NCBI GenBank assembly: GCA_046598935.1
Contig: JBKJHW010000046.1
Location: 7,071 to 71,070 of the forward strand
Direction: 5' to 3'
DNA: 64,000 bases
DNA from: Vicinamibacterales bacterium
GTDB lineage: Bacteria > Acidobacteriota > Vicinamibacteria > Vicinamibacterales > SCN-69-37
Numbering within the stretch: the first letter of the stretch is position 1; every line of letters starts with the position of its first letter. Shown here one piece after another: positions 7,016 to 64,000 of the stretch. The translations under genes and the position numbers were made by a program. A model generated the notes under the pieces. It was not told where the DNA came from. It saw only the letters and a program-made list of their open reading frames with translations, and searched no databases.

Positions 7016-7963
7016 ATGTCTCTGGACCACCGGTTTCGCGAGATCGTCGAAGCCTTTGTCGCCCGCGTTCGTCGGGATATGGACTCACATGTCCAGGGCC
7101 TGACGAGCGACCTGCTTCGAATGGGCTCGGAGAACCAGGAATACTGGCGCTCAACGCTCGAGCGCGCGGTGACCGACGCGCGGCAGGACGCCGAGCGCGG
7201 CTTCAAGGCCCGGCTCGAAGCCCTGAGAAATGAGCTGACCCGCGAAATGGAGCAGCGCCTCTCGACCGAGCGCCAGCAGCTTCAAGCCGCGACGCTCGCG
7301 GCGACGCAAGCCGCGGCTGAAGCGGCCAACGCCGTGAGCGCAGCCCACGTGGCCAGCGCGCAATCGGCGGCGCACGCCGCGACAGTCGTCACCGCTGCTG
7401 CGCCCCGTGCCGCTGTTCCGGAAACCGGCGTTCGCGAAGCCCGGCGCGAAGCCCGGATCGATACCCTCGAACGCTTGCTCGGCGCGGTTCGACGACTCGA
7501 TGAAGCGAATTCGCTGACAGCCATCCTCGACACACTGGCCAAAGGGGCGTCCGAAGAGACCTCCCGCGTGACGATCCTCCTCGTGGACGGCGATCTGTTG
7601 AAGCCGTGGTCATCCCACGGATTCGCTCCGGGCCACGCCCCGACGGTCATTCCGATCGGCTCAGCGGGTGTGCTGACCGCGACAGTCGCGCTGAAGCAAA
7701 CGTCGTACGTTAAACCGATGATTGCTCGCGATCTGACGACCCCGACCTTCATGCAGGTGCCCGTCGGCCACACGGGCCTCATCGTCCCGCTTGTCGTCGG
7801 CGGGGAGGTTGTGGCGGTCCTTTACGCTGACGATGTCGGCCAGAAGGAAGAGCACGTGGATTCGCCGATCTGGACCGAGGAACTTGATCTGCTGGTCCGG
7901 CACGCGGCGCTGCGCCTCGAAAATCTCACGTCCGTGAGGACGACCGAGGCTCTGGGCTCATGA
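7016..7963 (+). CDS. coiled-coil/Ala-rich protein with a C-terminal GAF-like domain
   Basis: The C-terminal part (RVTILLVDGDLLKPWSSHGF...LIVPLVVGGEVVAVLYADD) is GAF-like. The ATG at 7016 is chosen because the TTG at 6977 coincides with the -35 box. Confidence 0.6.
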   Translation: MSLDHRFREIVEAFVARVRRDMDSHVQGLTSDLLRMGSENQEYWRSTLERAVTDARQDAERGFKARLEALRNELTREMEQRLSTERQQLQAATLAATQAAAEAANAVSAAHVASAQSAAHAATVVTAAAPRAAVPETGVREARREARIDTLERLLGAVRRLDEANSLTAILDTLAKGASEETSRVTILLVDGDLLKPWSSHGFAPGHAPTVIPIGSAGVLTATVALKQTSYVKPMIARDLTTPTFMQVPVGHTGLIVPLVVGGEVVAVLYADDVGQKEEHVDSPIWTEELDLLVRHAALRLENLTSVRTTEALGS

Positions 7964-49341: not shown

Positions 49342-50112
49342 CTTGAACATCGCGTCGTCCATCGCGACGTTGTGCTCGACCTTCGTGAGCTTCATGGTGA
49401 TGGTCTGCAGTTCGCTGGAATTGATGATGGTGAACGGGACCTTGATGCCGTCAACGGTGCGGTAGTCCTGGGACTCGCCGGACTGCTGCATCATGCCGCC
49501 GCCCATCGGGTTCTCGACCATCGTCACGGCGCGCGCAAGCAGGTAGGTGGCGGGGTCGAAGTACATCGTCACGAAATTGCCCGACGCGTGCGTCACCTTC
49601 ATGAGAATCCAGGACGTGCCGGCGACGGTCTCGCGCGGCAGCAGCTCGAGTTTGGCCGCGCCGCCGTTCTTGTCGAGGAATGGCGACGGGAAGAAGCTGT
49701 ATTTCATGTTCTCGAGCTGCGCGCCGGTGATTTCCTTGTCGCCCTGCATCGGGTCGATCGACCAGCCGACGACGCCGTCGAAGATCTGTTCGATGGTGAG
49801 CGTGCCCGGGCCGCCGACCGCCGCGAGATCGATTGAGAGGACGGCGCGGCTCTTGTTCGGGGCCTTGGAATACAACTCCACCGGACCGGCGAGTTCGATG
49901 CCCTGCATGCCGATGGCGATCGTGCCGGTGGACTTGCGCGAGGTGAGCTTCATCAGCGCTTCGCGTCCGCCCATGGCAGCGATGTGCTTGTCGATGACGG
50001 ACTGAACCGTGTCGGCCGCCTGTGCCGCCTGGACGGGCTGGGTGGAGAAGCTGGTGGTGGCAGCGGCGACGAGGAACAAGGCAGCGGCGAGCAAGAGGGT
50101 GGACTTCTTCAT
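49333..50112 (-). CDS. LolA-like / outer-membrane-lipoprotein-sorting-fold secreted protein
   Basis: Signal MKKSTLLLAAALFLVAAATTSFS. The pattern VIDKHIAAMGGREALMKL...YRTVDGIKVPF is similar to the C-terminal domain of the M16 protein at 41007..43190. Confidence 0.6.
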   Translation of the reverse strand: MKKSTLLLAAALFLVAAATTSFSTQPVQAAQAADTVQSVIDKHIAAMGGREALMKLTSRKSTGTIAIGMQGIELAGPVELYSKAPNKSRAVLSIDLAAVGGPGTLTIEQIFDGVVGWSIDPMQGDKEITGAQLENMKYSFFPSPFLDKNGGAAKLELLPRETVAGTSWILMKVTHASGNFVTMYFDPATYLLARAVTMVENPMGGGMMQQSGESQDYRTVDGIKVPFTIINSSELQTITMKLTKVEHNVAMDDAMFKKK

Positions 50113-50171
50113 ATGTTTATTGTGAACGGATACGGCCAAACCCCAGTGGAAGTTTCTTCGTCCAAGAGCCC

Positions 50172-50327
50172 ATGACCTTCTTGAAGAAGCTGTTTGGCAA
50201 GGCCGAACCTCCGAAAACACGGGTCCGCGTCTGCGTGGAATGCGGGATGCCCGTCGCGGAACACAAAGATTGGTGTTCAATTAAGCGGGGCCAGCTCGAA
50301 ATGGAGGGCGCCAGACCCAACCGGTGA
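50172..50327 (+). CDS. small hypothetical protein with a CxxC...C motif
   Basis: 51 aa, MTFLKKLFGKAEPPKTRVRVCVECGMPVAEHKDWC.... The stop overlaps the rsmE GTG start. Support is weak. Confidence 0.35.
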   Translation: MTFLKKLFGKAEPPKTRVRVCVECGMPVAEHKDWCSIKRGQLEMEGARPNR

Positions 50328-51097
50328 ATCTGATTCTTATAGAGCCTGCAGAAGTCAGATCTGACGGGACCGCGCGCATAGCCGGTCCGCAGGCCGATCA
50401 CATCCGGAGAGTCCTCAGGAGTTCTCCCGGCCACGAGCTCCGCGTCGGCGTGATTGATGGTCCCGCCGGGACCGCCACCATCACCGCCGTGACCGACAGT
50501 TTTGTTGAGCTGGCCTGCCGGCTCGATGCTGAACCGCCGCCCCGCCCGGAAGTCGATCTCCTCCTCGCATTGCCTCGACCCAAAGTGATGCGCCGCCTCT
50601 GGGCGCAACTGGCCGCGCTGGGCGTCGGCCGGATCATCCTCACAAACGCAGAACGCGTCGAGCGCGATTACTTCGATACCCACATCCTCGAGCCCGAAAC
50701 CTATCGCTCGCTCCTGATCGAGGGCCTGCAACAGGCGCGCGACACGCGTCTCCCAGTTGTCACCATCCACAAACGGTTCAAAGTGCTGATTGAAGACGAG
50801 TTGGACGCGATGTGCCCTCAGCGCAGGCGCCTCGTCGCCCACCCCGGGAGCCAGCCAGAAATAGGGGTCGGGTGTTATTTCGAAATAACACCCGACCCCT
50901 ATTTCCCCTATTTCCCCGACCCCTATTTCCGCGATTCGCGTACGCTTCTCGCGGTTGGGCCCGAGGGCGGATGGAACGCGTTCGAGTTAGGGATGCTCGA
51001 GGCGCGCGGATTTCGGCCGATCAGCCTCGGTCCCCGATCACTACGGACCGACACGGCGTGTATTGCATTGCTCACGCTCGTTCACACGCGCCCGTAG
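50324..51097 (+). CDS. rsmE: 16S rRNA (uracil1498-N3)-methyltransferase
   Basis: Contains a PUA-like N-terminus (ADHIRRVLRSSPGHELRVGVIDG), LLLALPRPKVMRR and LLAVGPEGGW...LGPRSLRTDTA. It carries a repeat-derived insertion. Confidence 0.8.
   Translation: MNLILIEPAEVRSDGTARIAGPQADHIRRVLRSSPGHELRVGVIDGPAGTATITAVTDSFVELACRLDAEPPPRPEVDLLLALPRPKVMRRLWAQLAALGVGRIILTNAERVERDYFDTHILEPETYRSLLIEGLQQARDTRLPVVTIHKRFKVLIEDELDAMCPQRRRLVAHPGSQPEIGVGCYFEITPDPYFPYFPDPYFRDSRTLLAVGPEGGWNAFELGMLEARGFRPISLGPRSLRTDTACIALLTLVHTRP
50858..50929. repeat. family-C palindromic element inside rsmE (48-nt perfect palindrome plus reiterated arm end)
   Basis: GAAATAGGGGTCGGGTGTTATTTC|GAAATAACACCCGACCCCTATTTC spans 50858..50905. 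It is followed by CCCTATTTC and CCCGACCCCTATTTC. Confidence 0.9.
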
Positions 51098-51105
51098 AAT
51101 GGGGC

Positions 51106-52467
51106 GTGCCCGTTCGTGACGCCATTACTACCGAAACCAGACAGGCGCTGACCGACCGGTATCAGCGCAACCGCCAGCGATCCGCCCAACTCTTCGACCT
51201 CGTCGACGAAGCCTCCTACTATTCCAAGCCCATCGATCTGCGTCACCCCATCGTGTTTTACGAGGGCCATCTGCCGGCGTTCAGCTTCAACACGCTCGTG
51301 AAGCGCGGCCTCGGCGGCCAGGGCATCGATCCGAAGCTCGAGACGTTGTTCGCCCGCGGCATCGATCCGCATGAAGCGGACGCAAATTCTCCGGACGATG
51401 CGCGCGCCGGCTGGCCTTCGCGCGCTGAAGTGCAGGCCTTCGCCGCCGAAGCCGACAGTTACGTGATCGCCGCGCTGCAGCACGGCGACATCGAGCAGCC
51501 TGGCCACCCCATGCTCGACGGCGCCGAGGCGGCCTATGCCATCCTCGAGCACGAGGCGATGCATCAGGAAACACTGCTGTACATGTGGCACCGCCTGCCC
51601 CTCGATGCGAAGCGCGCGCCCGCAGGCTACGCGCCGCCCACCGATGGCGCGGTCCCGCATCAGTTCGACATCACTGTCCCCGCCGGCCGCGCAACGCTCG
51701 GCGTCAGCGCCGACGACGTCGAGTTCTCGTGGGACAACGAGCGGCCGCGCACCGCCGTCGATGTCGATGAGTTCGCGATCGACGCGCACAACGTGACGAA
51801 CGAAGCGTTTCTGGAATTTGTCCAGGCGGGCGGCTATCGTGAACCGCAGTTCTGGCGGCCCGAAGATTTCGCCTGGATCACCGAGCGCGGTATCGAGCAT
51901 CCACTGTTCTGGGAACGTCAGGGCGACAACTCGTCGGACGCCGGGGCAATCATGTGGCGCGGGATGTTCGAGATGCTGCCGCTGCGGATGAGCTGGCCGG
52001 TGTATGTCAGCCAGGCGGAAGCGTCGGCATTTGCGCGCTGGCGCGGGCGCCGGCTGCCGACGGAAGCCGAGTTCCAGCGGGCCGCCTACGGCTCGCCGTC
52101 GGGCGAGGAGCGGAAGTTCCCCTGGGGCGACGCCGCGCCAGACGCGTCGCGCGGCGTTTTTGATTTTGAATCGTGGGATCCGGCTCCGGCCGGGAGCCGC
52201 CCAGCCGGCGCGAGCGGGTGGGCGATCCACGACCTGGCCGGCAACGGCTGGGAGTGGACAGGCACCGTGTTCGCCCCGTTCGAGGGTTTCCAGCCGCTGC
52301 CGTCGTATCCGGAATACTCGGCCGATTTTTTCGACGGCGAGCATTTCGTCATCAAGGGCGCATCGCCCGCAACGGCGCGCGAGCTTCTGCGGCCGACGTT
52401 TCGCAACTGGTTCCGTCCGCGGTATCCGTACGTCTATGCCGGCTTCCGTACAGTCGCCAACCGCTGA
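51106..52467 (+). CDS. egtB: ergothioneine biosynthesis sulfoxide synthase EgtB-like (DinB_2 plus FGE-sulfatase domains)
   Basis: Contains HPIVFYEGHLPAF, ILEHEAMHQETLLYM, a C-terminal FGE-like region GNGWEWT and RGASPAT. An in-frame GTG at 51106 follows the rsmE stop. Confidence 0.75.
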   Translation: MPVRDAITTETRQALTDRYQRNRQRSAQLFDLVDEASYYSKPIDLRHPIVFYEGHLPAFSFNTLVKRGLGGQGIDPKLETLFARGIDPHEADANSPDDARAGWPSRAEVQAFAAEADSYVIAALQHGDIEQPGHPMLDGAEAAYAILEHEAMHQETLLYMWHRLPLDAKRAPAGYAPPTDGAVPHQFDITVPAGRATLGVSADDVEFSWDNERPRTAVDVDEFAIDAHNVTNEAFLEFVQAGGYREPQFWRPEDFAWITERGIEHPLFWERQGDNSSDAGAIMWRGMFEMLPLRMSWPVYVSQAEASAFARWRGRRLPTEAEFQRAAYGSPSGEERKFPWGDAAPDASRGVFDFESWDPAPAGSRPAGASGWAIHDLAGNGWEWTGTVFAPFEGFQPLPSYPEYSADFFDGEHFVIKGASPATARELLRPTFRNWFRPRYPYVYAGFRTVANR

Positions 52468-53458
52468 CGTCGGCGTCGCGCAGTTTGCGGCCGACGCGCG
52501 CCACTACCTGACGCAAACCCCGCGTCAGATGGCGTCGCGCTATTTCTACGACGCGCCCGGATCCCGATTGTTCGACGCGATCTGCGAACTGCCGTGGTAT
52601 CGCGTGACGCGCGCCGAGACGGCGCTGCTGCGGCGCCATAATGCCGAGATCCTCCAGCGCGCCGGCTCGCCGTCGCGCATCGTCGAACTCGGCTCAGGCA
52701 GCGGCGCCAAACTCGCTGTGCTCGCCGAAGGAATCCAGTCGACGACGGCGCCGATTGAGTTACATCTGATCGATGTCTCGTCGGCGGCGCTGGCGGCTGC
52801 CGCACGCGCGCTCGATGCGGTGCCGAATGTGGAGATCATCACGCATCACGCGACCTACGAATCCGGGCTCGACGCTGTCAGGGCGAAAAGTCGGGAGTTA
52901 ATTCAATTAACTCCCGACCTTAATTGGCCCTCACAGTCGGCCGGTCTGACGCTGGCGTTGTTTCTCGGGTCCAATATCGGCAACTTCGATCGCGACGCCG
53001 CCGACGCGCTGCTCGTGCGATTGCGCGCCGCGCTCACGCCCGGCGATTCGCTGCTGCTCGGCACGGATCTCGTGAAGCCGGAAGCCGACCTGCTGCTCGC
53101 GTACGACGACCCGCTGGGCGTCACGGCGGCTTTTAATCTGAATCTTTTCGCACGGATGAATCGAGAGCTCGGCGCGACCTTTGCGCTCGACCTTCTCAGG
53201 CACGTCGCTGTCTGGAACGCCGCCGAATCGCGCGTCGAGATGCACGTCGAGGCACGCGCCGAGCACCGCGTGACGGTGCCGGCGGCGGGTCTTGATTTTG
53301 TCCTTGAAGCCGGCGAGCGCATCTGGACAGAGAACTCGCACAAATACACGTCTGTCGACGTTGATCGCATGCTCGATCGCGCGGGCTTTGCCGTGGCTGA
53401 GCGGTGGACCGACGTTGATGCGGGGTTTGCGCTGACGCTGGCGTCGGCGCGGGCCTAG
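52436..53458 (+). CDS. egtD: L-histidine N(alpha)-methyltransferase EgtD-like
   Basis: Contains RYFYDAPGSRLFDAICELPWYRVTRAETALL, VELGSGSGAK and FLGSNIGNF. The ATG at 52436 overlaps the egtB end by 32 nt. Confidence 0.75.
   Translation: MPASVQSPTADVGVAQFAADARHYLTQTPRQMASRYFYDAPGSRLFDAICELPWYRVTRAETALLRRHNAEILQRAGSPSRIVELGSGSGAKLAVLAEGIQSTTAPIELHLIDVSSAALAAAARALDAVPNVEIITHHATYESGLDAVRAKSRELIQLTPDLNWPSQSAGLTLALFLGSNIGNFDRDAADALLVRLRAALTPGDSLLLGTDLVKPEADLLLAYDDPLGVTAAFNLNLFARMNRELGATFALDLLRHVAVWNAAESRVEMHVEARAEHRVTVPAAGLDFVLEAGERIWTENSHKYTSVDVDRMLDRAGFAVAERWTDVDAGFALTLASARA
52886..52925. repeat. family-B palindromic element inside egtD
   Basis: AAGTCGGGAGTTAATT-c-AATTAACTCCCGACCT followed by TAATT. 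It is translated in-frame as KSRELIQLTPDLNW. Confidence 0.9.
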
Positions 53459-53525
53459 CCAGCCGCAAGCCGGACACGCGCTCGGCCACATTGAGTTGCC
53501 CGTCCGCATATAATCCCCGAACTCC

Positions 53526-56198
53526 CTGGCGGCTCTCACTCCCGGCACACGTCTCGGCTCCTACGAAATCATCGCCCCGCTCGGCGCAGGCGGGATGGGC
53601 GAGGTCTATCGCGCGAAGGATGCGCGGCTCGGTCGTGACGTCGCGCTGAAAGTCCTCCCGCCAGCGCTCGCCAAGGATCCCGAACACCGGGCCCGTTTCG
53701 AGCGCGAGGCGCGAGCGGCCTCCTCGCTGAACCATCCGCACATCTGCGTGATCTACGACGTTGGATCCCAGGATGGCGTCGATTTTCTCGTCATGGAATT
53801 GCTCGAAGGTGAGACGGCCGCTGATGCGGCGGCGCGCGGCCCGATGCTTCTCGCCGACGTGATGCGCACGGGCGCGCAAATGGCCGATGCGCTCGATCGC
53901 GCGCACAAGAAGAACCTGATCCACCGCGACGTGAAGCCCGCCAACATCATGCTGGTCAGGCCCTCGTCGAAGAGCGGTCCTCTCCACGCGAAGCTGCTCG
54001 ACTTTGGCCTCGCACGTCCGACCACGTCAACGGTTACTGATCAGACGATGACCAAAGCGCTGACGGCCGCGGGGACGATCGTCGGCACGTTTCAGTACAT
54101 GTCGCCGGAACAGGTCGAAGGCCGCGATGTCGACGCGCGTACGGACATCTGGTCGCTCGGCGCGACCTTGTATGAGATGGCGACCGGCGTGCGCGCATTC
54201 GAGGGCTCGAGCACCGCGAGCCTGATCAGCGCCGTGTTGCGTGATGAACCGAAGCCGATGTCCGGACGCGTGCCGCTCACGCCGCCCGCTTTCCAGCGCG
54301 TCGTGTCGCAGTGTCTCGCGAAGGATCCCGAGGATCGCTGGCAGAGCGCCGGCGATGTGAAACGCGAGCTTGACTGGATCGCGAGCGGTGGAGGATCGGG
54401 CTTTGCCACCGCTTCGATCCCGAACTCGGGCGTGCGATCGAACGCCAACACCTGGATCACGAGACTGATAGTGGCCGCCGCGCTCGTGTTGACGGCCGCC
54501 ACGGCGTGGTGGTTCGGCCGGAGCGCTACGAGCGCTCCGGCGCTCTGGTCGAACTTCGCGCAGCTCACCGATGCGTCCGGGGTCGAGACGGCGCCGAGCC
54601 TTTCTCCTGACGGCAGCTCGATCGCGTATTCGAGCGCGGCGAACGGCAGCAGCGACATCTACGTGCAACGGGTCGGCGGCCGCAACCCGGTGCTTGTCGC
54701 CGGCGATCCAGGTCGCGACGAAGACTGGCCAGCGTACTCACCGGACGGAAAACAGATCGCGTTCAACATCAGCAGCGGCAGTGGCGGCATTTTCGTTGTC
54801 GGCGCCACCGGCGAATCGGTACGACGGCTGACCGACGCCGGATCGAATCCCGCCTGGTCCCCGAACAGCCTGCGCATCGTTTACGCCTCCGAGCAGGTGC
54901 TGGATCCGTATCAACGATTTGGTGTCAGCACGTTGTGGACCGTGGGCGTCGATGGCGGCACTCCGATCAGGATCGACGATGGGGACGCGGTTCAGCCGGC
55001 GTGGTCGCCATCGGGAAAGCGGATCGCGTTCTGGCAGAACGTGAACGGCCAGCGCGACATCGCGACGATTCCCGAGGCCGGCGGTCCGCATGTGCTGGTA
55101 ACGAACGACGCGGCCGTCGATTGGGCGCCCGTGTGGTCTCCGGACGGCAAGTGTCTGTATTTTGCGAGCGACCGCGGCGGATCGATGGGGATCTGGCGGA
55201 TCGGGATCGACGAGGGCACAGGCAAACCGATGAGCGCGCCTGAGCCGATCGCGGCCGGTGTGGACATTCAGATGGACCTGCCGCACGTGTCGTTCGACGG
55301 CACGTCAATCGTGTTTCGATCGAAGATCGAGTCGGTGAATCCGGCGGCGATCGCGTTCGATCCCATCACTGAGCGCGCCGGCGCGGTCACGCTCCTTCAA
55401 CATCGCACCGGCAAGTTGATGCCGACCGACGTCTCGCCGGACGGCAAGTGGATCGCGCTCAACAATACCTATGAGCGCCAGCAAGACATCTTCATCATGC
55501 GTCCTGACGGAAGCGGACTCTCACGCGTGACCGACGACGACGCGCGCGACTGGATCGGAAAATTCACGCCGGACAGCGCGGCGCTGACATTTCAGTCGAA
55601 CAAGGCCGGTAAGTACGATGGGTGGCTCGTGCGCCTCGATGGCAGCGGCCGAACCAGGCTGACCTCAGGATTTGCGTACGATACCGGCACGCCTTTGTTT
55701 TCGGCGGACATGCGTCGCCTGATGGTCGCGCTCGACCCTGAGGTCTGGATCGGCAGTCCGCCCTGGCCGATGACCAGCACTACGGCAAAGCGGATCACGA
55801 TTCCCGCGCTGACCACCGGACGGCTCCTTCCGACGACCTGGTCGCGCGACGGCCGATGGCTCGGTGGCACGATCGCGGGTCCCGCCGGCAACGCGGTCGG
55901 CATCGCGCTCTTCGACGTTGCGACCTCTACCATCCGCCAGCTCAACGCTGACGGGGTCACCGATCCGCTTGAATTGCCGGGTGGCACGCGCGTGATTTTT
56001 CTCACGGCCGCTGGTGCGCTGGTCGTGCAGGACATTCACTCGCTGAAGCGGCGAGAAATACCGGTGGCGTGGCCGTTGCCGTCGAGCAGCAGTAACTCGC
56101 TCGCCGTCTCGCCGGACGGTACAACGATTTACTACGCCGCGGCGCAGACGGAAGCCAACATCTGGAAGGTCTCGCAGCCCAAAGTGGTGAAGAAGTAG
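53526..56198 (+). CDS. Ser/Thr protein kinase with a transmembrane segment and C-terminal TolB-like (PD40) beta-propeller repeats; start codon unresolved
   Basis: The kinase domain includes GAGGMGEVYRAKD, HRDVKPANIM and DFGLA, followed by repeated SPDG..IAF/Y units. The first ATG (53595) lies inside the Gly-loop. Upstream in frame, after the TAA at 53511, the only start-like codon is CTG at 53526. Confidence 0.7.
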   Translation: MAALTPGTRLGSYEIIAPLGAGGMGEVYRAKDARLGRDVALKVLPPALAKDPEHRARFEREARAASSLNHPHICVIYDVGSQDGVDFLVMELLEGETAADAAARGPMLLADVMRTGAQMADALDRAHKKNLIHRDVKPANIMLVRPSSKSGPLHAKLLDFGLARPTTSTVTDQTMTKALTAAGTIVGTFQYMSPEQVEGRDVDARTDIWSLGATLYEMATGVRAFEGSSTASLISAVLRDEPKPMSGRVPLTPPAFQRVVSQCLAKDPEDRWQSAGDVKRELDWIASGGGSGFATASIPNSGVRSNANTWITRLIVAAALVLTAATAWWFGRSATSAPALWSNFAQLTDASGVETAPSLSPDGSSIAYSSAANGSSDIYVQRVGGRNPVLVAGDPGRDEDWPAYSPDGKQIAFNISSGSGGIFVVGATGESVRRLTDAGSNPAWSPNSLRIVYASEQVLDPYQRFGVSTLWTVGVDGGTPIRIDDGDAVQPAWSPSGKRIAFWQNVNGQRDIATIPEAGGPHVLVTNDAAVDWAPVWSPDGKCLYFASDRGGSMGIWRIGIDEGTGKPMSAPEPIAAGVDIQMDLPHVSFDGTSIVFRSKIESVNPAAIAFDPITERAGAVTLLQHRTGKLMPTDVSPDGKWIALNNTYERQQDIFIMRPDGSGLSRVTDDDARDWIGKFTPDSAALTFQSNKAGKYDGWLVRLDGSGRTRLTSGFAYDTGTPLFSADMRRLMVALDPEVWIGSPPWPMTSTTAKRITIPALTTGRLLPTTWSRDGRWLGGTIAGPAGNAVGIALFDVATSTIRQLNADGVTDPLELPGGTRVIFLTAAGALVVQDIHSLKRREIPVAWPLPSSSSNSLAVSPDGTTIYYAAAQTEANIWKVSQPKVVKK

Positions 56199-56224
56199 AT
56201 GTCGCTGACCCGACAGGTTGTCCC

Positions 56225-56572
56225 CTACGCGACGGCCAGCACGAACTCGACCTTCACCGCCTCGTACGGAAACACGATGCGGCCATCGTCGGTGCGATCA
56301 AGCACGCCGGCCGTGAGTAACGCGGAGACGTCGCCATGCACGGCTTTGACATCGCGATCGAGCCGGCGCGCGGCTTCTCGAATGGACACCGGCCCCGCAC
56401 CACTCAACGCCTTGAGCAGGTCCAGGCGTTTCGCAGTCAGAACCCGCCACAGCAACTCTGGCGACGCAAAACTGATGCGCGCGGATTTGCCGGCCTTGCC
56501 GCTCTTCCACACGCGGACGAAGTCCCGCATCGCAGTGCCTGGCGTTTGGACGTCAAGGGTGACGGTTTTCAC
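56225..56572 (-). CDS. HTH DNA-binding protein, putative antitoxin partner of the DUF6516/TumE-like toxin
   Basis: The winged-helix-like segment LTAKRLDLLKALSGAGPVSIREAARRLDRDVKAVHGDVSALLTAGVL is present. It overlaps the upstream gene by 20 nt. Confidence 0.6.
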   Translation of the reverse strand: MKTVTLDVQTPGTAMRDFVRVWKSGKAGKSARISFASPELLWRVLTAKRLDLLKALSGAGPVSIREAARRLDRDVKAVHGDVSALLTAGVLDRTDDGRIVFPYEAVKVEFVLAVA

Positions 56573-56849
56573 GGTTCCACCTCGCTATGTCGGCCTGAAA
56601 GTCGGCGACCAACTTCTCCGGGGTATCGAATATGTAGCGACGTTCCCTGGCGTTGAAGTGCCGGTGGTCGCCCTTGCCCGCTTCGTTGTCATAGCGAACG
56701 ACGCACGTGCCGTTGACGACATAGGCGAGGCGATATTTGAACGGGTGGATCGATCCTGGAACCGGCTTCGGGACGCGCCACAGCACCAACTCCGCGAACG
56801 CGACTTCCGACAACGCCAGCCTCGTGTGAAGCAGCGTTGTCGCCCTCAT
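56553..56849 (-). CDS. DUF6516 (TumE-like) toxin-antitoxin system protein
   Basis: Contains KYRLAYVVNGTCVVRYDNEAGKGDHRHFNARERRYIF. The track start is 56861. The ATG at 56849 is preferred because 56861 lies inside the predicted -10 box. Confidence 0.6.
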   Translation of the reverse strand: MRATTLLHTRLALSEVAFAELVLWRVPKPVPGSIHPFKYRLAYVVNGTCVVRYDNEAGKGDHRHFNARERRYIFDTPEKLVADFQADIARWNRENRHP

Positions 56850-56856
56850 GTTGGAG

Positions 56857-56886
56857 ATCATGCCAACAGTGAGCCTGTGTTGTCAA
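56857..56886 (-). promoter_or_regulatory. candidate promoter TTGACA-N18-CATGAT giving a leaderless TumE-like mRNA
   Basis: The minus strand reads TTGACAacacaggctcactgttggCATGATctccaacATG. The -35 is perfect, and there are 7 nt between the -10 and the ATG at 56849. Confidence 0.45.
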
Positions 56887-56914
56887 CTGGTCCATCACTC
56901 GGAGCGTTGTCGTC

Positions 56915-57019
56915 TTGGCGCTGAGTCCCGGCACCCGTCTCGGTCCCTATGAAATCGTCTCCGCCCTCGGCGCTGGCGTCGAAGCGGCCGTGGCCGAGTT
57001 GATGAAGTCGATCAGGTAA
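56915..57019 (+). pseudogene. remnant of a Ser/Thr kinase gene (first ~20 codons only)
   Basis: TTG-ALSPGTRLGPYEIVSALGAG matches the N-termini of the kinases at 53526 and 63723 at both DNA and protein level. It then diverges (VEAAVAELMKSIR*) and runs into the 3' end of the convergent SDR gene. Confidence 0.7.
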
Positions 57020-58496
57020 GGCCCGGCGGCGTGGTTCCGCGTTCCGCGCGCGCGCGGATCTGATCGATCAACCCACTGAAGATCAGCGCGTGGATCGGGT
57101 AGAGCAAGTACCAGTACGCCCACCCAGCCAAGCCCGTGGGTGCGAAAAACGCCGTTTGGGACAGCAACGTCTTGCCGTCATCTCTCGGCATGACCTGCAG
57201 TTGGAGCCAGGCCTTGCCGGGCACCAACATCTCCGCGCGAAGACGCAACAGTTGGCCAGGCTCGACCGCTTCCACGCGCCAGAAATCGAGCGCGTCGCCC
57301 ATCCTGAGTTTGTCTGGATCGCGCCGGCCTCGGCGCAGGCCGACACCGCCGAGCAGGCGATCGAGGAACCCGCGGATCTGCCACGCCCACGTCATGTAGA
57401 ACCAGCCGCGCGCGGCGCCGATGCCGGCAAAAATCTCGTAGACGCGTTCGGGCGTGGCTGACACGATGCGCTCGCGTCGTTCGAGAATCATGCCTTCGTT
57501 GGTCGTCAGCCGCACGGGTGTGGCCGCGCCCTGGCTCGTGCTGAGCGCGTCGCTCCATGCCGATTCGATGTCGCTTGCGACCAGTCGCGCCAGCGCGCGC
57601 TCGACAGCGACCCGGTAGCCCACGGGATGAATCTCCGGGAACAACACCGCGGCCGCCCGGTCGCGCACGACGTTCTCGTTGCGTAGTCCTTCGATGAGCG
57701 GGCGCGCGATCACTGCGGGAATGGGCGTGACGATGTTGACCCAGTAGGAGGAGAGGCGCGGCGTGAGCACCGGCACCGAGATCAGCCAACGCCGGAGGCC
57801 GCGCACCTCGCCGTAGATGCGCATCATGTCGCCGTAGGTCACGACTTCAGCGCCGCCGATCTCGATGATGCGATCGCGGCTCTCGGGCGCCGCGAGCGAG
57901 GCGGCGAGATACTCGATCACCTCGCGGATGCCGATCGGCTGCGTGCGCGTGGACACCCAGCGCGGGCAGATCATCACCGGCAGGCGTTCGGTGAGGTAGC
58001 GGATCATCTCGAACGACAGACTGCCGGAACCGACGATGACGCCGGCGCGCAGTTCCGTGACGGCGACGCCCGTAGCCCGCAACGCGTCGCCTGTTTGCTG
58101 CCGCGAGCGGAGGTGTTCCGAGAGATCAGGTGAACTCTCGGCGAGTCCGCCGAGGTAGATCACGCGATCGACGCCGGCACGGTGCGCGGCGGCGCCGAAG
58201 TTGGTGGCGGCGGTCATGTCGCGCGCGTGGAAATCCGCGCCGCCCGCCATGCTGTGCACGAGGTAGTACGCGGCCGACACACCTGCCATCGCGTCGGTGA
58301 GGCTCTCGGGTTCGAGCACGTCGCCCGCGACAATTTCCACAGCCGAATGCCACGGCCGTCCCTGGAGTCGAGCCGGATCGCGCGCGAGACACCGCACCCG
58401 GTACCCCAACTCGAGGAGGCGCGGAACCAGGCGACCACCGATGTATCCGGTGGCGCCGCTGACGAGGACGAGTGGGGCGGTGGGCACAGCCGTCAA
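57012..58496 (-). CDS. SDR-family NAD(P)-binding protein fused to a DUF2867 domain
   Basis: Contains the Rossmann motif LVSGATGYIGGRLVPRLLELGYRVRCLARDP. The C-terminal half resembles DUF2867 (WRVEAVEPGQLLRLRAEM). Confidence 0.75.
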   Translation of the reverse strand: MTAVPTAPLVLVSGATGYIGGRLVPRLLELGYRVRCLARDPARLQGRPWHSAVEIVAGDVLEPESLTDAMAGVSAAYYLVHSMAGGADFHARDMTAATNFGAAAHRAGVDRVIYLGGLAESSPDLSEHLRSRQQTGDALRATGVAVTELRAGVIVGSGSLSFEMIRYLTERLPVMICPRWVSTRTQPIGIREVIEYLAASLAAPESRDRIIEIGGAEVVTYGDMMRIYGEVRGLRRWLISVPVLTPRLSSYWVNIVTPIPAVIARPLIEGLRNENVVRDRAAAVLFPEIHPVGYRVAVERALARLVASDIESAWSDALSTSQGAATPVRLTTNEGMILERRERIVSATPERVYEIFAGIGAARGWFYMTWAWQIRGFLDRLLGGVGLRRGRRDPDKLRMGDALDFWRVEAVEPGQLLRLRAEMLVPGKAWLQLQVMPRDDGKTLLSQTAFFAPTGLAGWAYWYLLYPIHALIFSGLIDQIRARAERGTTPPGLT

Positions 58497-58552
58497 CTAT
58501 GACGTCTTCTTGCGGCCTGCGATCCCGGATTCTGGCATCATCCTCCGACCAG

Positions 58553-61231
58553 ATGACTCTTCATTATTATTGGCGCACCCGACTCATCATGTTGGCGATC
58601 GGCGTTGCCGGCATCCGCCTTGTCGCCCTCCAGCAGCCGGCGTCGTCGCCCGGCACGACGACGGCAACCACGGCGGAAGCTCGCGCCGCCGCGTGGCGAA
58701 GCCATCAGCGGCTCGCAGCCGAATCGCCGTTTGCCGCGCTGCCGTGGCGCGCGCTCGGGCCGTCGCATCAGTCCGCGCGGATTGAGGCGATTGCGGTGCC
58801 CGCCGGCAGCCGCAACACGATCTACGTGGGCCCGAGCGCCGGCAACGTGTGGAAAACGACGAACAACGGGCTGACATGGAAACCGATCTTTGACCACGAG
58901 TCGGCGTTTGCCGTCGGTGACATCGCTGTCGCGCCCTCAAATCCCGACATCGTGTGGGTCGGCACCGGCGAAGTGCAGCCGCGATTTGCGGGGTACGCGT
59001 TCGCGGGGAGCGGCGTCTTCAAGTCAACGGATGCGGGGCGGACGTGGACCAACATGGGTCTTGCCGACAGCCATCACATCGGCAAGGTCCTCATCGACGC
59101 GAACAATCCGAACATCGTCTACGTCGCCGCAATGGGGCATCAGTGGACGCCCAACCGCGAGCGCGGCGTGTTCAAGACAACGGATGGCGGCCGCACGTGG
59201 ACGCATGCGCTGGGCGTAGACGACGTCACAGGTGCCATTGATCTGGCGATGGATCCAACGAACCACAACGTGCTCTACGCGTCGATGTGGCAGATCGAGA
59301 CCGGCCCGCGCAGCGGCATCTATCGCTCGACCGATGCGGGCGCCACGTGGAAGAAACTCGGCAACGGGCTGCCGACCGGACTGATCGGCCGCAGCAACAT
59401 CGACATCGCGCCATCGCGAACCGAGACCGTGTACGTCTATCTCGACAACCGGTCGCCGGTGACTGGCGGCACGGCAGATCGCCCCTACGTGGGCGGCGAG
59501 GTGTATCGCTCGGACAACGGCGGCGACACGTGGCGCAAGGCCAACACCGACGACCTCTATCCGGTGTTCAGTGTGTACGGCTGGAAGTTCTGCGACGTCC
59601 GCGTCTCGCCCGACAATGCGGAAGAAATCTACATTCTCGGCAATCGCGCATTTCATTCGACCGATGGGGGGCGCACCTACGCGCGAATCGGCGAGACGAT
59701 TCGGCGTCTGCGCCAGACAGAAGGCCTCGTGATGCATCTTGATCATCACGAAATCTGGATCGATCCCGCGGACCCGAATCACATCCTGCTTGGCAACGAC
59801 GGCGGCGTCATGTCGTCGTACGACCGCGGCCGGTCGTGGCTGCACATGAACACGATTCCGGTCGGGCAGTTCTATAGCGTGGCGGTTGACATGGCCGAGC
59901 CGTACAACATCTACGGCGGCACGCAGGATAATGCGGCGCTGTACGGGCCGAGCACGTACACGGTCGACGACACGCGCAACGAAAACGAGCCGTGGAAGCA
60001 CGTGTATCTCGACCAGTGGACCGGCGGCGATTCGTTCGTCACGCTGCCGGACCCGGCCGATCCGCGGTACGTCTACTACGAACATCAGAACGGCGAGCTC
60101 AGGCGCATGGACACCGAAGGCCCGTCGATCCAGACCGGCAGCCCCTCGTCGCAACGCATCACGCCGCGCGCGCCGCGCGGCGAGACGCCGTGGCGCATCG
60201 GCTGGTACATGCCGTACCTGATTTCCGCGTTTGATCCAGCGACGATCTACGCGGGCACCAATCGGCTTGTGAAGAGCAGCAATCGTGGCCTCGCGTGGTC
60301 GGCGGTGAGCCCGGATGTCTCGGATCCCGCAGGCGGGGACCGCGCGACGGTGCCGTACGGCACGATCACGATGATCGCGGAGTCGCCGACGACCCGCGGC
60401 CTCATTTACCTCGGTACTGAAAGCGGGCGGGTGCATGTCACCCGAGACGAGGGCGCGCATTGGACGGCGATTGACGCCGGTCTGCCGAAAAAATGGGTGA
60501 GCCGGGTGATCGCGTCGCAGCATGCGGTCGGTACCGCCTACGTCTCATTCACCGGCTACCGCGAGGACGACACCCGTCCCTATCTCTACCACTCGACTGA
60601 CTTCGGCGCGCACTGGACGTCGATTGCCGCCAACCTTCCGGCCGAGTCGATCAATGTGATTCGCGAGGATCCACGCAATGCGGACGTGCTCTACGTGGGC
60701 ACGGACGCCGGCGTGTACGTGTCGATCGATCGCGGCGCGACGTGGCTGTCGCTGTCGGCCACGCTGCCGACCACGCCCGTGCACGATCTGGTGGTTCATC
60801 CGAGAGACGACGAGATCGTGATCGGCACGCATGGGCGAGGCGTGTTCGTGCTCGACGCGCGGCCGATTCAGCAGTGGGTCAGAGCGACCGGGGTCTCGGC
60901 CGGGCCGCGGCTGTTCTCGCCGCATCCGGCGCTCGTGCGTATCGCCGACGAGATGGAGCCGGCGGGCACGCCCGGGTCGGCGACGATTGCTTTTTCGACG
61001 GATGCGGCGGGGCCCGCCACGCTGACGATTCGTGCCGCCGGCGGGGCGGTCGCGAAGACAATCGAGGTGCAGGCCGTGCGCGGTCTCAACATCGTTCGCT
61101 GGAATCTGCTGATGAGCGGCGCAAACCCGCGCCCCGCGGCGCCAGGCGAATATCGTGTCGAGTTGTCCGCCGCCAGCCGCACTGTAGATGCCACGCTGCG
61201 GCTCGATCGGTTCGTGCGTTGGACGCGTTGA
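58553..61231 (+). CDS. BNR/Asp-box repeat, sortilin/VPS10-like beta-propeller protein (secreted)
   Basis: There are many S-x-D-x-G-x-T-W Asp-boxes (KSTDAGRTWT, KTTDGGRTWT, RSTDAGATWK, RSDNGGDTWR, HSTDGGRTY, SYDRGRSW, TRDEGAHWT, STDFGAHWT, SIDRGATWL). The ATG at 58553 comes before the signal-like helix. Confidence 0.75.
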   Translation: MTLHYYWRTRLIMLAIGVAGIRLVALQQPASSPGTTTATTAEARAAAWRSHQRLAAESPFAALPWRALGPSHQSARIEAIAVPAGSRNTIYVGPSAGNVWKTTNNGLTWKPIFDHESAFAVGDIAVAPSNPDIVWVGTGEVQPRFAGYAFAGSGVFKSTDAGRTWTNMGLADSHHIGKVLIDANNPNIVYVAAMGHQWTPNRERGVFKTTDGGRTWTHALGVDDVTGAIDLAMDPTNHNVLYASMWQIETGPRSGIYRSTDAGATWKKLGNGLPTGLIGRSNIDIAPSRTETVYVYLDNRSPVTGGTADRPYVGGEVYRSDNGGDTWRKANTDDLYPVFSVYGWKFCDVRVSPDNAEEIYILGNRAFHSTDGGRTYARIGETIRRLRQTEGLVMHLDHHEIWIDPADPNHILLGNDGGVMSSYDRGRSWLHMNTIPVGQFYSVAVDMAEPYNIYGGTQDNAALYGPSTYTVDDTRNENEPWKHVYLDQWTGGDSFVTLPDPADPRYVYYEHQNGELRRMDTEGPSIQTGSPSSQRITPRAPRGETPWRIGWYMPYLISAFDPATIYAGTNRLVKSSNRGLAWSAVSPDVSDPAGGDRATVPYGTITMIAESPTTRGLIYLGTESGRVHVTRDEGAHWTAIDAGLPKKWVSRVIASQHAVGTAYVSFTGYREDDTRPYLYHSTDFGAHWTSIAANLPAESINVIREDPRNADVLYVGTDAGVYVSIDRGATWLSLSATLPTTPVHDLVVHPRDDEIVIGTHGRGVFVLDARPIQQWVRATGVSAGPRLFSPHPALVRIADEMEPAGTPGSATIAFSTDAAGPATLTIRAAGGAVAKTIEVQAVRGLNIVRWNLLMSGANPRPAAPGEYRVELSAASRTVDATLRLDRFVRWTR

Positions 61232-61235
61232 CGCG

Positions 61236-61652
61236 TTACGCGGCCGCGTCGCTCACGCGAACGAGTCTGCTGCGGCTGGCGTAGTCGATGATCTGGCGAT
61301 CGCGCGTGACGAGCGGCACGTCGTACGCGCGCGCGCTGGCGACGAGCATCCGATCAACCGGATCACCGAGCGCGGACGAGGGAATCTGGCCGGCGTCGAT
61401 CGCGATATCCATGTCGATGCCGACGACACGCAGGCTGCCGCGGGTCACGGAGTCGCGAATCCATTTTTCCGCTGATTGATTCAGGCGGAGCCGGCCCGCA
61501 GTGGCGAGCGCCGTGATCTCAAATACCGAGGCCGTCGTGACGAGCAGGGTGCCTGCAGCGGCAGCGCGCGCGATGAGGCGGCGAGTCTTGGGCCCCAGTT
61601 TTCCCGGCTCGTCAGCTGCGGCCCAGATCCAAGCGTGCGTGTCGAGCAACAT
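61236..61652 (-). CDS. vapC: type II toxin-antitoxin system VapC family toxin (PIN domain)
   Basis: Contains MLLDTHAWIW (N-terminal Asp), FEITALA, DPVDRMLVASA and LVTRD. Confidence 0.85.
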   Translation of the reverse strand: MLLDTHAWIWAAADEPGKLGPKTRRLIARAAAAGTLLVTTASVFEITALATAGRLRLNQSAEKWIRDSVTRGSLRVVGIDMDIAIDAGQIPSSALGDPVDRMLVASARAYDVPLVTRDRQIIDYASRSRLVRVSDAAA

Positions 61653-61658
61653 GGCGCG

Positions 61659-61931
61659 TCAGTCGGTCTCGCCGGCGGACGCGTTCACGTGCCACGCGCC
61701 GGGCACCGGCTCAAACGGCGCGTCGTACCCGAGCACCGATCCCGTCATCGATCCGATGAACGTCGTCGAAGCCTTCCGCTCGACCGGCACCAGTCGCGCC
61801 ATAGGCCGGCCATGCCGCGTGACGACGTATTCGGCTCGTGCCTCGCTGACGTGATCGATCAGCTCGAGGCACCGGGCCTTGAAATCCGCCGAGCCGACGT
61901 CGCCCCGTGGCGTATCCCGTTTCTTTGACAT
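61659..61931 (-). CDS. Phd/YefM-type antitoxin
   Basis: Contains DFKARCLELIDHVSEARAEYVVTRHGRPMARLVPV. The ATG at 61931 is preferred. A -10 TATAAT (minus strand, 61946..61941) lies 9 nt upstream. Confidence 0.7.
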   Translation of the reverse strand: MSKKRDTPRGDVGSADFKARCLELIDHVSEARAEYVVTRHGRPMARLVPVERKASTTFIGSMTGSVLGYDAPFEPVPGAWHVNASAGETD

Positions 61932-61940
61932 GACTAGAAT

Positions 61941-61946
61941 ATTATA
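61941..61946 (-). promoter_or_regulatory. candidate -10 box (GCTATAAT) for the phd-vapC operon
   Basis: The minus strand reads ttGCTATAATattctagtcATG. Confidence 0.45.
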
Positions 61947-62115
61947 GCAATAAATGGCTGTCGGGATCAGTTCGCGCGATCTTAGTAGTTGGCAGGCAAG
62001 TTGGCGGTCATTTCCATCACGCTCGTCATGGAACCGGTCGAAGGCGAAGACGTGTCCGCGCACATCGAGCGCGGCGCGGGGCTGCGTTTGTCACTGACGC
62101 CCGACGGCAAGAGCC

Positions 62116-63660
62116 TTATTGTTTTCTCGGGACTTTGGCGTCAGCCATGGCCGCGTTGTAGGCAAACGCGGCGACGATGGTGGCGTTCTTCTTCATGTCT
62201 TCCGCCGGAATCGTCTCGATGAAATCGAGATTCGTGTGGCCGCCGGTGCCGCCGACGCGGTCCTGCAGGAACTGGAAGCCCGGCAGCCCCACCCGGTCGA
62301 ACGCGATGTGATCGGTGCTGCCGACGCCGAGGATCGACACCGCCGTCATGCCGAGGTCCCTGAATGGCGCGGTCCAGGCGGTCATCATCGCGCGCGCGGC
62401 GTCGTTGCCCTGCAAGTAGATGCCGCGGTACTGGCCCGGACCGTAGTCCTGATTGAAGTACGCCGACAGCTTGCCGTACTCCGGCGCGACGCCTTGCGGG
62501 CTTTTCGGATCGCCGAAGTGCTTCAGCACATACTGCGTGGAGCCATGCAGGCCCTGCTCTTCGCCGGCCCACAGCGCGATCCGAATCGTGCGGCGCGGCT
62601 TTGCGCCGACCGCCTTCAGTATGCGCATCGCCTCGAGCATCACCGCCGTCCCTGACGTGTTGTCGCTCGCGTTCGGGCTTGCGTGCCACGTGTCGAAGTG
62701 CGCGCCGATCATGACGACTTCGTCCTTGAGGTCGCTGCCGGGAATCTCGCCGATGACGTTGTTCGCCTTCTCGACGGTCGGGCCGATCTGGTTGCGCACC
62801 TCCACTTCCACCCTCACCGGAATGCCGCGCTTGAGAATGCGATACATCCGGTTGTAGTGCTCGGGGGTGATCGCCACGATTGGGGGCGACGCCAGCGTCT
62901 CGTCGCGGCTCCACTTGTCCGCGCCTGATCCCGGGCGCGAGAACCCGCGCACCGCGCCCATCCACCCGCTGTCGCACTGCAGCACCACGGCCACGCCTTC
63001 CGACTTGTAGAACCGCATCCGCTCGAGCGCCGTGACGGCGTTCGGATTCGGCGCGGCGGGAGGCGCCGGCGCTGCGGGGGCGGGCGGCACTGCGTCGTTG
63101 ATCTTCTTCACTTCGTCGTCGGTGTATCGCGGCGTGCCGGTCTCGATCTTCTTCAGGTCCACGGTCGCCGGCGCGCTCATCAGCACCGCCATGCCCGCGA
63201 GCTTTCCCCGAAACGCGTCGAGGTCGGCCTTCGTCTTGATCTCGGCCACGACGGCATTCAGCGTCTGCTTGCCATTTGTGCCCGGTGTATGCGCAATCGG
63301 GTAGCCCACCATCGGCTGATAGTCGGGCGTGAGCATGTGCAGCGACGTGTACTCGTTATCCCACGTCGTCCCAAAATCCATGAACGGCTCGATCGCGACG
63401 TTGACGAGCCCCATGCGCGCCATCTCGGTCTTCGCCCACGCCTGCGCCCGCTTCATGTCGTCCGAGAGCGTGAGCCGCGCGCCGAGCACATCAGCGATGT
63501 ACGACTCGGTCTCCATCACGCGTGATCGCTGCAGGCCTTCGTCGCGGATCTTCGCGACCATGGCCATGTCGACCGGCGTCACGGCGCTTTGCGCGAACAG
63601 GGCAAGAGAAAGAATGGGAAGGGCCAGAAGAGTGAGGCGCAGGCGGGCGGCTGAACGCAT
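62116..63660 (-). CDS. M28 family metallopeptidase (aminopeptidase) with a PA-like insert, secreted
   Basis: Signal MRSAARLRLTLLALPILSLALFAQS. Contains IGAHFDTWH, WAGEEQGLHGS and GSTDHIAF. A minus-strand TAGTAT (63673..63668) lies 7 nt upstream of the ATG. Confidence 0.8.
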   Translation of the reverse strand: MRSAARLRLTLLALPILSLALFAQSAVTPVDMAMVAKIRDEGLQRSRVMETESYIADVLGARLTLSDDMKRAQAWAKTEMARMGLVNVAIEPFMDFGTTWDNEYTSLHMLTPDYQPMVGYPIAHTPGTNGKQTLNAVVAEIKTKADLDAFRGKLAGMAVLMSAPATVDLKKIETGTPRYTDDEVKKINDAVPPAPAAPAPPAAPNPNAVTALERMRFYKSEGVAVVLQCDSGWMGAVRGFSRPGSGADKWSRDETLASPPIVAITPEHYNRMYRILKRGIPVRVEVEVRNQIGPTVEKANNVIGEIPGSDLKDEVVMIGAHFDTWHASPNASDNTSGTAVMLEAMRILKAVGAKPRRTIRIALWAGEEQGLHGSTQYVLKHFGDPKSPQGVAPEYGKLSAYFNQDYGPGQYRGIYLQGNDAARAMMTAWTAPFRDLGMTAVSILGVGSTDHIAFDRVGLPGFQFLQDRVGGTGGHTNLDFIETIPAEDMKKNATIVAAFAYNAAMADAKVPRKQ

Positions 63661-63722
63661 GGGCGCAATACTACGCCGGAGCGCGGCAGTTCTTTATCCT
63701 CGTCGCTATACTAGCGCCACCC

Positions 63723-64000
63723 ATGAGCCTGGCCCCCGGCATCCGCCTCGGTCCCTACGAAATCGTCGCGCCCATCGGCGCGGGCGGGATGGGCGAGGTC
63801 TATCGCGCGAAAGACACAAACCTCAACCGCGACGTCGCGCTGAAAATTCTGCCGGAGTCGTTCGCGCTTGATGCCGATCGTGTCGCGCGGTTCAAACGCG
63901 AAGCGCAGGTGCTCGCGTCGCTGAATCATCCGAACATCGCCGCGATCTACGCGGTGGAAACGACACCCGATGTCGTTTCCACCGCCCTCGTCATGGAACT
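63723..64000 (+). CDS. Ser/Thr protein kinase, 3'-partial (continues beyond the window)
   Basis: Sequence MSLAPGIRLGPYEIVAPIGAGGMGEVYRAKDTNLNRDVALKILP...LNHPNIAAIY.... A GCTATACT -10 box at 63707..63712 lies 10 nt upstream of the ATG. Confidence 0.8.
   Translation, partial: MSLAPGIRLGPYEIVAPIGAGGMGEVYRAKDTNLNRDVALKILPESFALDADRVARFKREAQVLASLNHPNIAAIYAVETTPDVVSTALVME
63956..63980. repeat. family-A single hairpin inside the kinase CDS
   Basis: GGAAACGACA-CCCGA-TGTCGTTTCC forms a 10-bp stem. It is translated in-frame as (V)ETTPDVVS. Confidence 0.85.

Follow-up and report, generated by a model that had tools for sequence, protein, structure and literature searches.

Positions 56225..56898 of a 64,000-nucleotide stretch of DNA from a Vicinamibacterales bacterium (assembly GCA_046598935.1, contig JBKJHW010000046.1; the whole stretch is referred to below as the window, and supplies all coordinates) very probably make up a compact, self-contained type II toxin–antitoxin (TA) cassette of the TumE–TumA superfamily, in which the toxin gene comes first, and which lies beside the relic of a lost kinase gene. 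TumE–TumA was defined in 2023 as a TA family that targets translation (Durairaj et al., Nature; PMC10584680): six gammaproteobacterial DUF6516 proteins of subcluster 1a arrested the growth of E. coli and were neutralised by the products of neighbouring genes, and the Allochromatium toxin lowered the incorporation of 35S-methionine, an RNase activity being proposed, but not shown (PMC10584680). The parts of the cassette in the window are as follows.

56225..56898, (-) strand: cassette core, 674 bp common to TumE/helix-turn-helix (HTH) cassettes in unrelated contexts (blastn against the window)
56553..56849, (-) strand: tumE toxin gene, 98 amino acids (aa) from ATG 56849; the longest open reading frame (ORF) is 56553..56861, 102 aa
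56225..56572, (-) strand: antitoxin candidate (TumA-like), 115 aa with a GTG start, winged-helix, Pfam HVO_A0114
56576..56583, (-) strand: Shine–Dalgarno (SD)-like GAGGTGGA, 3 nt before the antitoxin GTG and within the tumE 3' end, read from the sequence

An initial annotation, made without database searches, had proposed that a TumE-like (DUF6516) protein and an HTH partner are encoded here by overlapping ORFs on the strand opposite to the preceding kinase gene, and this identity stood up to a hidden Markov model search. The toxin ORF 56553..56861(-) matches PF20126 'Toxin TumE' (DUF6516) with 54.3 bits (E 1.4e-14; profile positions 5-80 of 81), the curated cut-off being 23.4 bits, and PF20126 is also the precomputed Pfam assignment of all 120 of its 120 best homologues. 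The partner ORF 56225..56572(-) matches PF25212 HVO_A0114 (99.4 bits, E 1e-28), with weak HTH_20 and MarR matches besides, and the overlap between the two ORFs is one of 20 nt (56553..56572). In NCBIfam no model for TumE or for the HVO_A0114 partner was found, and of the PADLOC profiles none matched TumE, while the partner received weak matches of the winged-HTH (wHTH) type only.

The family to which the toxin belongs is a large one (6233 matches in 90% clusters, and 1309 clusters at 50% identity), and its commonest length, 98 aa, is that of the window copy when read from ATG 56849. All 19 of the nearly invariant residues of TumE are present in this copy, including H35, K38, Y39, D54, N55, E56, K59, D61, H62, H64, Y72, F74, L80 and F84, with positions 54-64 forming a conserved D-N-E-x-G-K-G-D-H-x-H block. 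The association with the partner is equally regular: about 80 of the 89 homologous loci extend far enough downstream, and in every one of these an HVO_A0114 gene overlaps the 3' end of tumE, in the same order. Comparison with five relatives gave low ratios of nonsynonymous to synonymous substitution (0.07-0.29 for the toxin, 0.09-0.13 for the partner), so both genes have been maintained by purifying selection. One apparent outlier, P0509, a protein of 1012 aa with seven weak TumE-like stretches by phmmer, is a DUF642 protein without a TumE Pfam match, and the stretches are probably spurious.

An AlphaFold2 model of TumE (pLDDT 95.1) has six strands and a C-terminal helix, and neither sequence comparison nor Foldseek gave any relative in the PDB or any known catalytic fold. 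The model of the partner (pLDDT 81) consists, in order, of a beta-alpha-beta element, the wHTH, its wing and a final strand; the wHTH superposes on the DNA-binding domains of IclR, MarR and CggR with an rmsd of 1.2-1.4 A (probability 1.0).

As to the start codons, that of tumE is most likely ATG 56849 (98 aa) rather than ATG 56861 (102 aa), to judge from the surrounding sequence; the latter is disfavoured because it lies inside the -10 hexamer CATGAT, and so is part of the promoter. For the partner, T3, L6 and V8 near the N-terminus are invariant across 37 paired homologues, and the 115-aa form beginning at GTG 56572 is therefore to be preferred to the annotated 101-aa form. Thus, the annotated starts of both genes (giving 102 aa for the toxin and 101 aa for the antitoxin) are probably wrong, the comparison favouring 98 aa and 115 aa. 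The SD-like element of the antitoxin inside the end of tumE points to translational coupling of the two genes.

The DNA between tumE and the kinase relic contains a promoter and a probable operator, with the following elements.

56850..56898, (-) strand: promoter and probable operator (promoter scan and upstream consensus)
56890-56898, (-) strand: control-region element GTGATGGAC
56881-56886, (-) strand: -35 TTGACA (promoter scan)
56877-56882 / 56863-56868, (-) strand: inverted arms CAACAC / TGTTGG
56857-56862, (-) strand: -10 CATGAT (promoter scan)
56850-56856, (-) strand: CTCCAAC, abutting the tumE ATG

This is the sole promoter-like site in 56100..57200 (shuffled sequences give 0.2), and its TTGACA, which had been said to lie some 30 nt from the TTG of the kinase remnant, is 29 nt from it by measurement. 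When 78 distinct upstream regions were aligned on the start codon, they gave the consensus tgTTGGagt.aTTGACAAC-N9-TGTTGg.AT.aTcTCCAAC-ATG. TTGACAAC was found in 71 of the 78, GTTG followed by the -10 in 70, and CAAC directly before the start codon in 68; the distance from the -35 to the ATG is 36 +/- 1 nt, and the gap between the -10 and the ATG is fixed at 7 nt. None of these aligned regions has an SD-like motif before tumE. So short a distance between the -10 and the ATG, together with the lack of an SD, suggests that the tumE mRNA is leaderless. The tetramers GTTG and CAAC are greatly over-represented (five in 71 nt, against 0.5 expected) and form nested inverted repeats across the -35, the spacer, the -10 and the start codon; from their arrangement, these repeats are likely to be the operator of the wHTH protein, to which it would bind. 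A 9-mer with the same GTTG/CAAC core as in the operator (CGACAACGC, or its complement GCGTTGTCG) occurs in three copies (56808-56816, 56834-56842 and 56904-56912), one just ahead of the TTG of the relic and two within the first codons of tumE; these could be extra binding sites for the antitoxin, or could be due to chance.

How might such a module work? Transcription from a sigma-70-type promoter (-35 at 56881-56886, -10 at 56857-56862) would yield a leaderless mRNA starting at or next to ATG 56849, from which a 98-aa TumE, by homology an inhibitor of translation, would be made; this is possibly a nuclease that acts through its conserved H/K/D-N-E/K-G-D-H-x-H residues. The 115-aa winged-helix partner would be translated from its GTG with the help of its own SD inside the end of tumE, and would be expected both to bind and neutralise TumE and to repress the promoter via the GTTG/CAAC repeats over the -35, spacer, -10 and start codon. 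The toxicity that we infer for the window TumE is taken, by analogy, from a different TumE subcluster.

On the other side of the control region, and on the opposite strand, lies what is left of a kinase gene, here listed with its immediate surroundings.

56915..56978, (+) strand: kinase 5' relic, 21 codons (LALSPGTRLGPYEIVSALGAG), with TTG for ATG and cut within the codons of the glycine-rich loop
56979..57019, (+) strand: unrelated read-through tail (VEAAVAELMKSIR, then a stop), overlapping the SDR stop codon
53526..56198, (+) strand: intact Ser/Thr kinase with a PD40/TolB-type beta-propeller (kinase 1; Pfam Pkinase, PD40)
57012..58496, (-) strand: convergent NAD(P)-binding SDR/DUF2867 gene, 494 codons (Pfam NAD_binding_10, DUF2867), with an intact C-terminus; right neighbour of the breakpoint

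The ORF 56915..57019(+), of 34 codons, reads (L)ALSPGTRLGPYEIVSALGAGVEAAVAELMKSIR up to its stop. Its first 21 codons, translated as ALSPGTRLGPYEIVSALGAG and followed by unrelated residues, align with the N-terminal residues of the two kinases encoded from 53526 and from 63723 (the intact kinases of the window start LTPGTRLGSYEIIAPLGAGGMGEVY and LAPGIRLGPYEIVAPIGAGGMGEVY). The same 21-mer found N-termini when compared by blastp with 240 kinases (E ~1e-7), and tblastn of kinase 1 against the whole window picked out 56918..56977 (75% identity, E 0.001). The kinase match ends after G-A-G (56978), and the ORF stops 13 codons further on, overlapping the stop of the SDR/DUF2867 gene by 8 nt. The tblastn result, the alignments and this overlap bear out the earlier description of a short ORF that is homologous to kinase 5' ends and meets the convergent SDR gene; the term 'decapitated', which had been applied to it, needs to be inverted, as the head of the kinase gene is the part that is left. 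The ORF is a gene fragment and not a kinase, a complete catalytic domain (glycine loop, VAIK lysine, HRD, DFG) being absent, and it departs from positions conserved in kinases (TTG for ATG, and VSAL for VAP(I/L)), as is to be expected of a dead fragment. With kinase 1 as the tblastn query, no other kinase fragment was found in any part of the window, and this makes it less likely that the gene was simply split by an insertion. At the opposite end of the cassette, kinase 1 is convergent with the antitoxin gene, their stop codons being 26 nt apart; a weak terminator-like hairpin (56200..56215, (-) strand) was found in this 26-nt gap past the antitoxin stop by a consensus scan, which gave no more such hairpins than were found in shuffled sequences.

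The intact state of the locus is seen in a relative. The metagenomic contig L068 is colinear with 56217..56978 of the window (82.8% over 763 nt), through both TA genes and into the relic, and at the position of the relic it has a full-length kinase–PD40 gene of at least 862 aa, with ATG where the window has TTG. The start of the kinase or relic is 65 nt from the tumE ATG in both, and 52 of the 64 nt of the relic are identical to the start of the L068 kinase gene. Homology ends at 56978 both with L068 and with the window's own kinases, and since the L068 alignment ends there, the breakpoint is at 56978/56979, within the glycine-loop codons. It is not an assembly error, because the same junction is reproduced in an independent assembly from another sequencing run of the same strain (L152), which is 99.95% identical to 54657..63757. 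A further relative, L060, shares the upstream DNA of the window as far as 56937 (LALNPGAR, about 8 codons), beyond which it departs from the window and runs on towards a gene for an M28 peptidase; from its sequence, this suggests a second, independent and shorter kinase relic. The tail of the window ORF past 56978 has no counterpart in L060 or L068.

In L060 (1486-1661), another frame of the spacer past the 8-codon stub reads AAGGMG; an internal deletion may have left here one more degraded remnant of the glycine loop of this kinase. The possibility that the M28 peptidases of L060 and of the window are orthologues was considered and rejected (31% identity over 124 aa only). A search with the L068 kinase gave homologues with at most 65% aa identity, and thus did not yield a longer contig carrying the intact locus.

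The relatives of kinase 1 (68-69% aa identity) are in tandem paralog arrays in which the next kinase follows directly downstream, and no TA pair was found beside them. Two contigs with such relatives, L146 (5377-14374) and L149 (1-16956), have dense arrays of three to six kinase–PD40 paralogs on one strand. The SDR/DUF2867 gene was tried as a synteny anchor and proved uninformative on the ancestral state: its neighbours differ in all 56 loci, with no kinase, TA pair or BNR gene beside it in any of them, and of L001 and L002, which match its C-terminus, neither has a kinase or a TA pair downstream. Relatives of this gene (loci L001-L031; 72-85% aa identity) always have different neighbours and come from metagenome-assembled genomes labelled as Acidobacteriota, Chloroflexota, Bacteroidota, Gemmatimonadota, Verrucomicrobiota and Eisenbacteria, and this scatter suggests frequent horizontal transfer of the gene.

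The TA cassette is also mobile. In blastn comparisons the same core recurs in unrelated contexts at 76-88% nt identity, with contexts that differ among L057, L060, L061, L068 and L150; its lower limit is always the antitoxin stop (56224/56225, or 56217 for L068), and its upper limit is 56887 (L066) or 56898 (L057, L061). The G+C content over the pair is 0.61, against about 0.65-0.68 around it, with no clear island, and no tRNA or Rfam family was found in the region. One set of cassettes (L150 at 7255-7435, and also L151 and L153-L157) is 88% identical to that of the window, and the promoter/operator has been lost from it along with tumE codons 1-8: in L150 homology begins at window position 56825, and the gene is annotated there as an 86-aa TumE beside a gene for an outer membrane protein of the TonB-dependent type. 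These cassettes may carry a disarmed toxin.

We took as an attC site an imperfect palindrome after the last gene, of the form R''/L''...L'/R' (RYYYAAC...GTTRRRY). Among the homologues, boxes of these kinds recur at locked positions: an RYYYAAC-like (R'') box occurs about 18 nt past the antitoxin stop in 21 of 68 downstream flanks (1.3 expected), and 19 of 76 upstream flanks (2.4 expected) have a GTTRRRY-like (R') box at a distance of about 74 nt from the toxin ATG. The attC-like sites in homologues fold as long imperfect palindromes (GCC[GT]AAC ... GTT[AC]GGC). By these sequence features, integron gene cassettes account for about a quarter of the homologous TumE/HVO_A0114 modules. Examples among loci L069-L145 are L113 (1298-1423), L070 (2593-2672), L109 (1825-3441) and L110 (6943-9945), and several contigs have arrays. 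No attC-like pair was found near the window copy (50000..64000). Chromosomal integrons are well known to carry TA cassettes (PMC13108822); in the literature searched, no paper was found that links DUF6516/TumE to integrons.

If these observations are put together, the history of the locus might be as follows. The family spreads horizontally, with many homologues as integron gene cassettes. In an ancestor of the window lineage the cassette would have stood head-to-head with a kinase–PD40 gene, the start codons 65 nt apart, as in L068. The window lineage would then have lost the kinase from codon 22 onwards, and what was left would be a relic of 64 nt, its ATG decayed to TTG and its frame reading through junk to the SDR stop. 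Among the possible histories we rank such a loss of the kinase body in situ first, without regarding it as proved, and the loss of a resident paralog is favoured by the tandem arrays in which the relatives of kinase 1 sit. The initial annotation had spoken of the scar of a deletion or insertion that removed a third kinase paralog. The body is indeed missing; the data would fit deletion in situ, the arrival of a ready-made stub or an insertion of about 6.7 kb.

Several observations weigh against the interpretation given here. The L068 kinase shares 87.3% identity with kinase 3, at 63723, across 252 nt, and 81% with the stub, across 64 nt, so that kinase 3 is the nearer of the two; and L068, a 3.4-kb contig, is the one relative in which an intact kinase is known beside the TA pair. 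Cassettes with at least 90% TumE identity (L150/L153) are in a wholly different context. On the functional side, only six pairs, all of subcluster 1a, have been assayed, and TumE is reported to be encoded mostly downstream of its partner (PMC10584680), whereas the subfamily of the window is toxin-first with a wHTH partner; the fold described in the same paper, moreover, has seven strands and two helices, and that modelled here six strands and one helix. Since the cassette does move, the stub could have moved with it, and it is conceivable that the cassette and the first 64 nt of a donor's kinase gene were inserted together between kinase 1 and the SDR gene, so that the stub was never part of a resident gene. 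The recurrence of the core in unrelated contexts (76-88% nt identity), often as an integron cassette, would agree with this, as would the fact that synteny around the SDR gene is conserved nowhere. We nevertheless consider such an import unlikely, because the window, L060 and L068, three members of the closest subclade, each have a PD40-type gene facing the antitoxin gene in convergent orientation and, upstream of tumE, a stretch of kinase origin whose end point differs among them, which fits vertical inheritance of one locus with independent erosion, and because the relatives of kinase 1 carry another kinase right after it. There may, on the other hand, have been no deletion at all, if the cassette was separated from kinase 3 by the insertion of about 6.7 kb (56979..63722, with the SDR gene, a BNR/sortilin-type hydrolase, VapBC and the M28 peptidase) and 64 nt from the very start of the kinase gene were duplicated in the process; kinase 3 would then be the original neighbour. 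The 5' end of kinase 3 is indeed the closest match to the L068 kinase, with which it agrees at 57 of 64 positions in the stub region (the stub itself at 52) and in 87.3% of 252 nt. However, the N-lobe is highly conserved, many unrelated kinases having 75-79% aa identity to the first 92 residues of kinase 3, there is no trace of the TA control region upstream of kinase 3, and no mechanism of duplication or repeat is visible at the junctions; nor can distances among three sequences root a tree, and kinase 3 itself is cut by the end of the window. An insertion of this kind seems improbable.

Two alternatives concern function rather than history. The pair might consist of a transcription factor and a small accessory or effector protein, such as a sensor or co-repressor, with no role in growth arrest: the window TumE has no PADLOC match, solved structure or known catalytic fold, and even those TumE proteins that have been validated are toxic by an unproven mechanism (PMC10584680). 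Such a role is hard to reconcile with a score above the Pfam cut-off of a family whose tested members were all toxic, or with the strictly kept overlapping two-gene layout, the palindrome-rich promoter and the occurrence of integron cassettes with their own promoter, which are all typical of TA modules, and we think it improbable too. Hardly any credence can be given to the idea that selection maintains the 34-codon ORF as a small functional gene or leader peptide. It does have an SD-like GGAG 9 nt upstream of the TTG, and it is identical in the second assembly (L152), though that is of the same strain; against this, TTG has taken the place of the ATG, VAP(I/L), which is conserved in kinases, reads VSAL, and the tail past 56978 is without a counterpart in L060 or L068, while the ORF ends only because it runs into the SDR stop region. 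The question whether the short ORF is a conserved independent gene thus has a negative answer: L068 has a full kinase there, L060 diverges, and the tail is unconserved.

It is a speculative and rather unlikely notion, mentioned here for what it would explain, that the TA cassette acts as a barrier to deletion: a deletion that reached the promoter would be lethal, as the antitoxin would no longer be made, and the end points of independent deletions would hence pile up just outside. Such a barrier would account for the 64-nt stub of the window and the shorter stub of L060 at the same place, and for the only 5'-damaged cassette seen (L150) having lost the start of its toxin gene. Because the start of the L068 kinase gene is 65 nt from that of tumE, inside the shared control region, it also may be that the wHTH antitoxin co-regulated the neighbouring kinase.

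Elsewhere in the window, the VapC/Phd pair that had been noted at 61236..61931 proved to be genuine, with a PIN match at E 8e-15 and a Phd match at E 6.5e-7, the latter just below the Pfam cut-off. Kinase 3, at 63723, is cut by the end of the window. There are 62 nt (63661-63722) between its ATG and the start of the divergent M28 peptidase gene; a TATACT box stands some 10 nt ahead of the ATG, and an SD is absent. From this sequence, kinase 3 may be another leaderless gene.

Taken alone, the locus would be routine: a known TA family beside a gene fragment, the kinase piece being an instance of ordinary gene decay. What is new concerns a large TumE subfamily, with its toxin-first order, its HVO_A0114 partner, its conserved promoter and operator, its probably leaderless mRNA and its frequent occurrence as an integron cassette; in the literature searched, TumE–TumA is the subject of one experimental paper. 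The conserved control region and the pair provide concrete constructs and binding sites to test, and the relic, together with the intact state in a relative, illustrates neatly, on a small scale, how a gene can be lost right beside an addiction module.

Among known systems, the Hanks-type Ser/Thr kinases with PD40/TolB beta-propellers, abundant in Acidobacteriota, where they occur in tandem arrays, are those from which the relic comes, its sequence being that of their N-terminus (L-x-P-G-T-R-L-G-P-Y-E-I-V-x-x-L-G-A-G); unlike them, it has 21 codons, a cut glycine loop, no catalytic domain and a decayed start codon. The cassette resembles integron TA cassettes (PMC13108822) in that about a quarter of the TumE/HTH homologues are flanked by attC-like sites in arrays and have their own promoter, whereas the window copy is in a kinase array, with no attC-like site within 50-64 kb. 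With TumE–TumA (PMC10584680) the pair shares a PF20126 match, probably a small alpha+beta protein without a PDB relative, a bicistronic arrangement with a small DNA-binding partner and membership of a large environmental family. It is toxin-first, however, where the TumE genes of that study are mostly downstream; its partner is an HVO_A0114 winged helix, where the partners in the tested subcluster 1a are RelB-like or of unknown type; and its toxin, at 98 aa, is shorter than those in that paper. From HigBA, MqsRA and HicAB the pair differs in that its antitoxin has a wHTH rather than an Xre-type HTH, in that the toxin mRNA would be leaderless, and in that TumE has no relation of sequence or fold to HigB, MqsR or HicA. 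Those three systems are nevertheless, like the pair in the window, toxin-first type II TA modules with a downstream HTH antitoxin and palindromes over the promoter.

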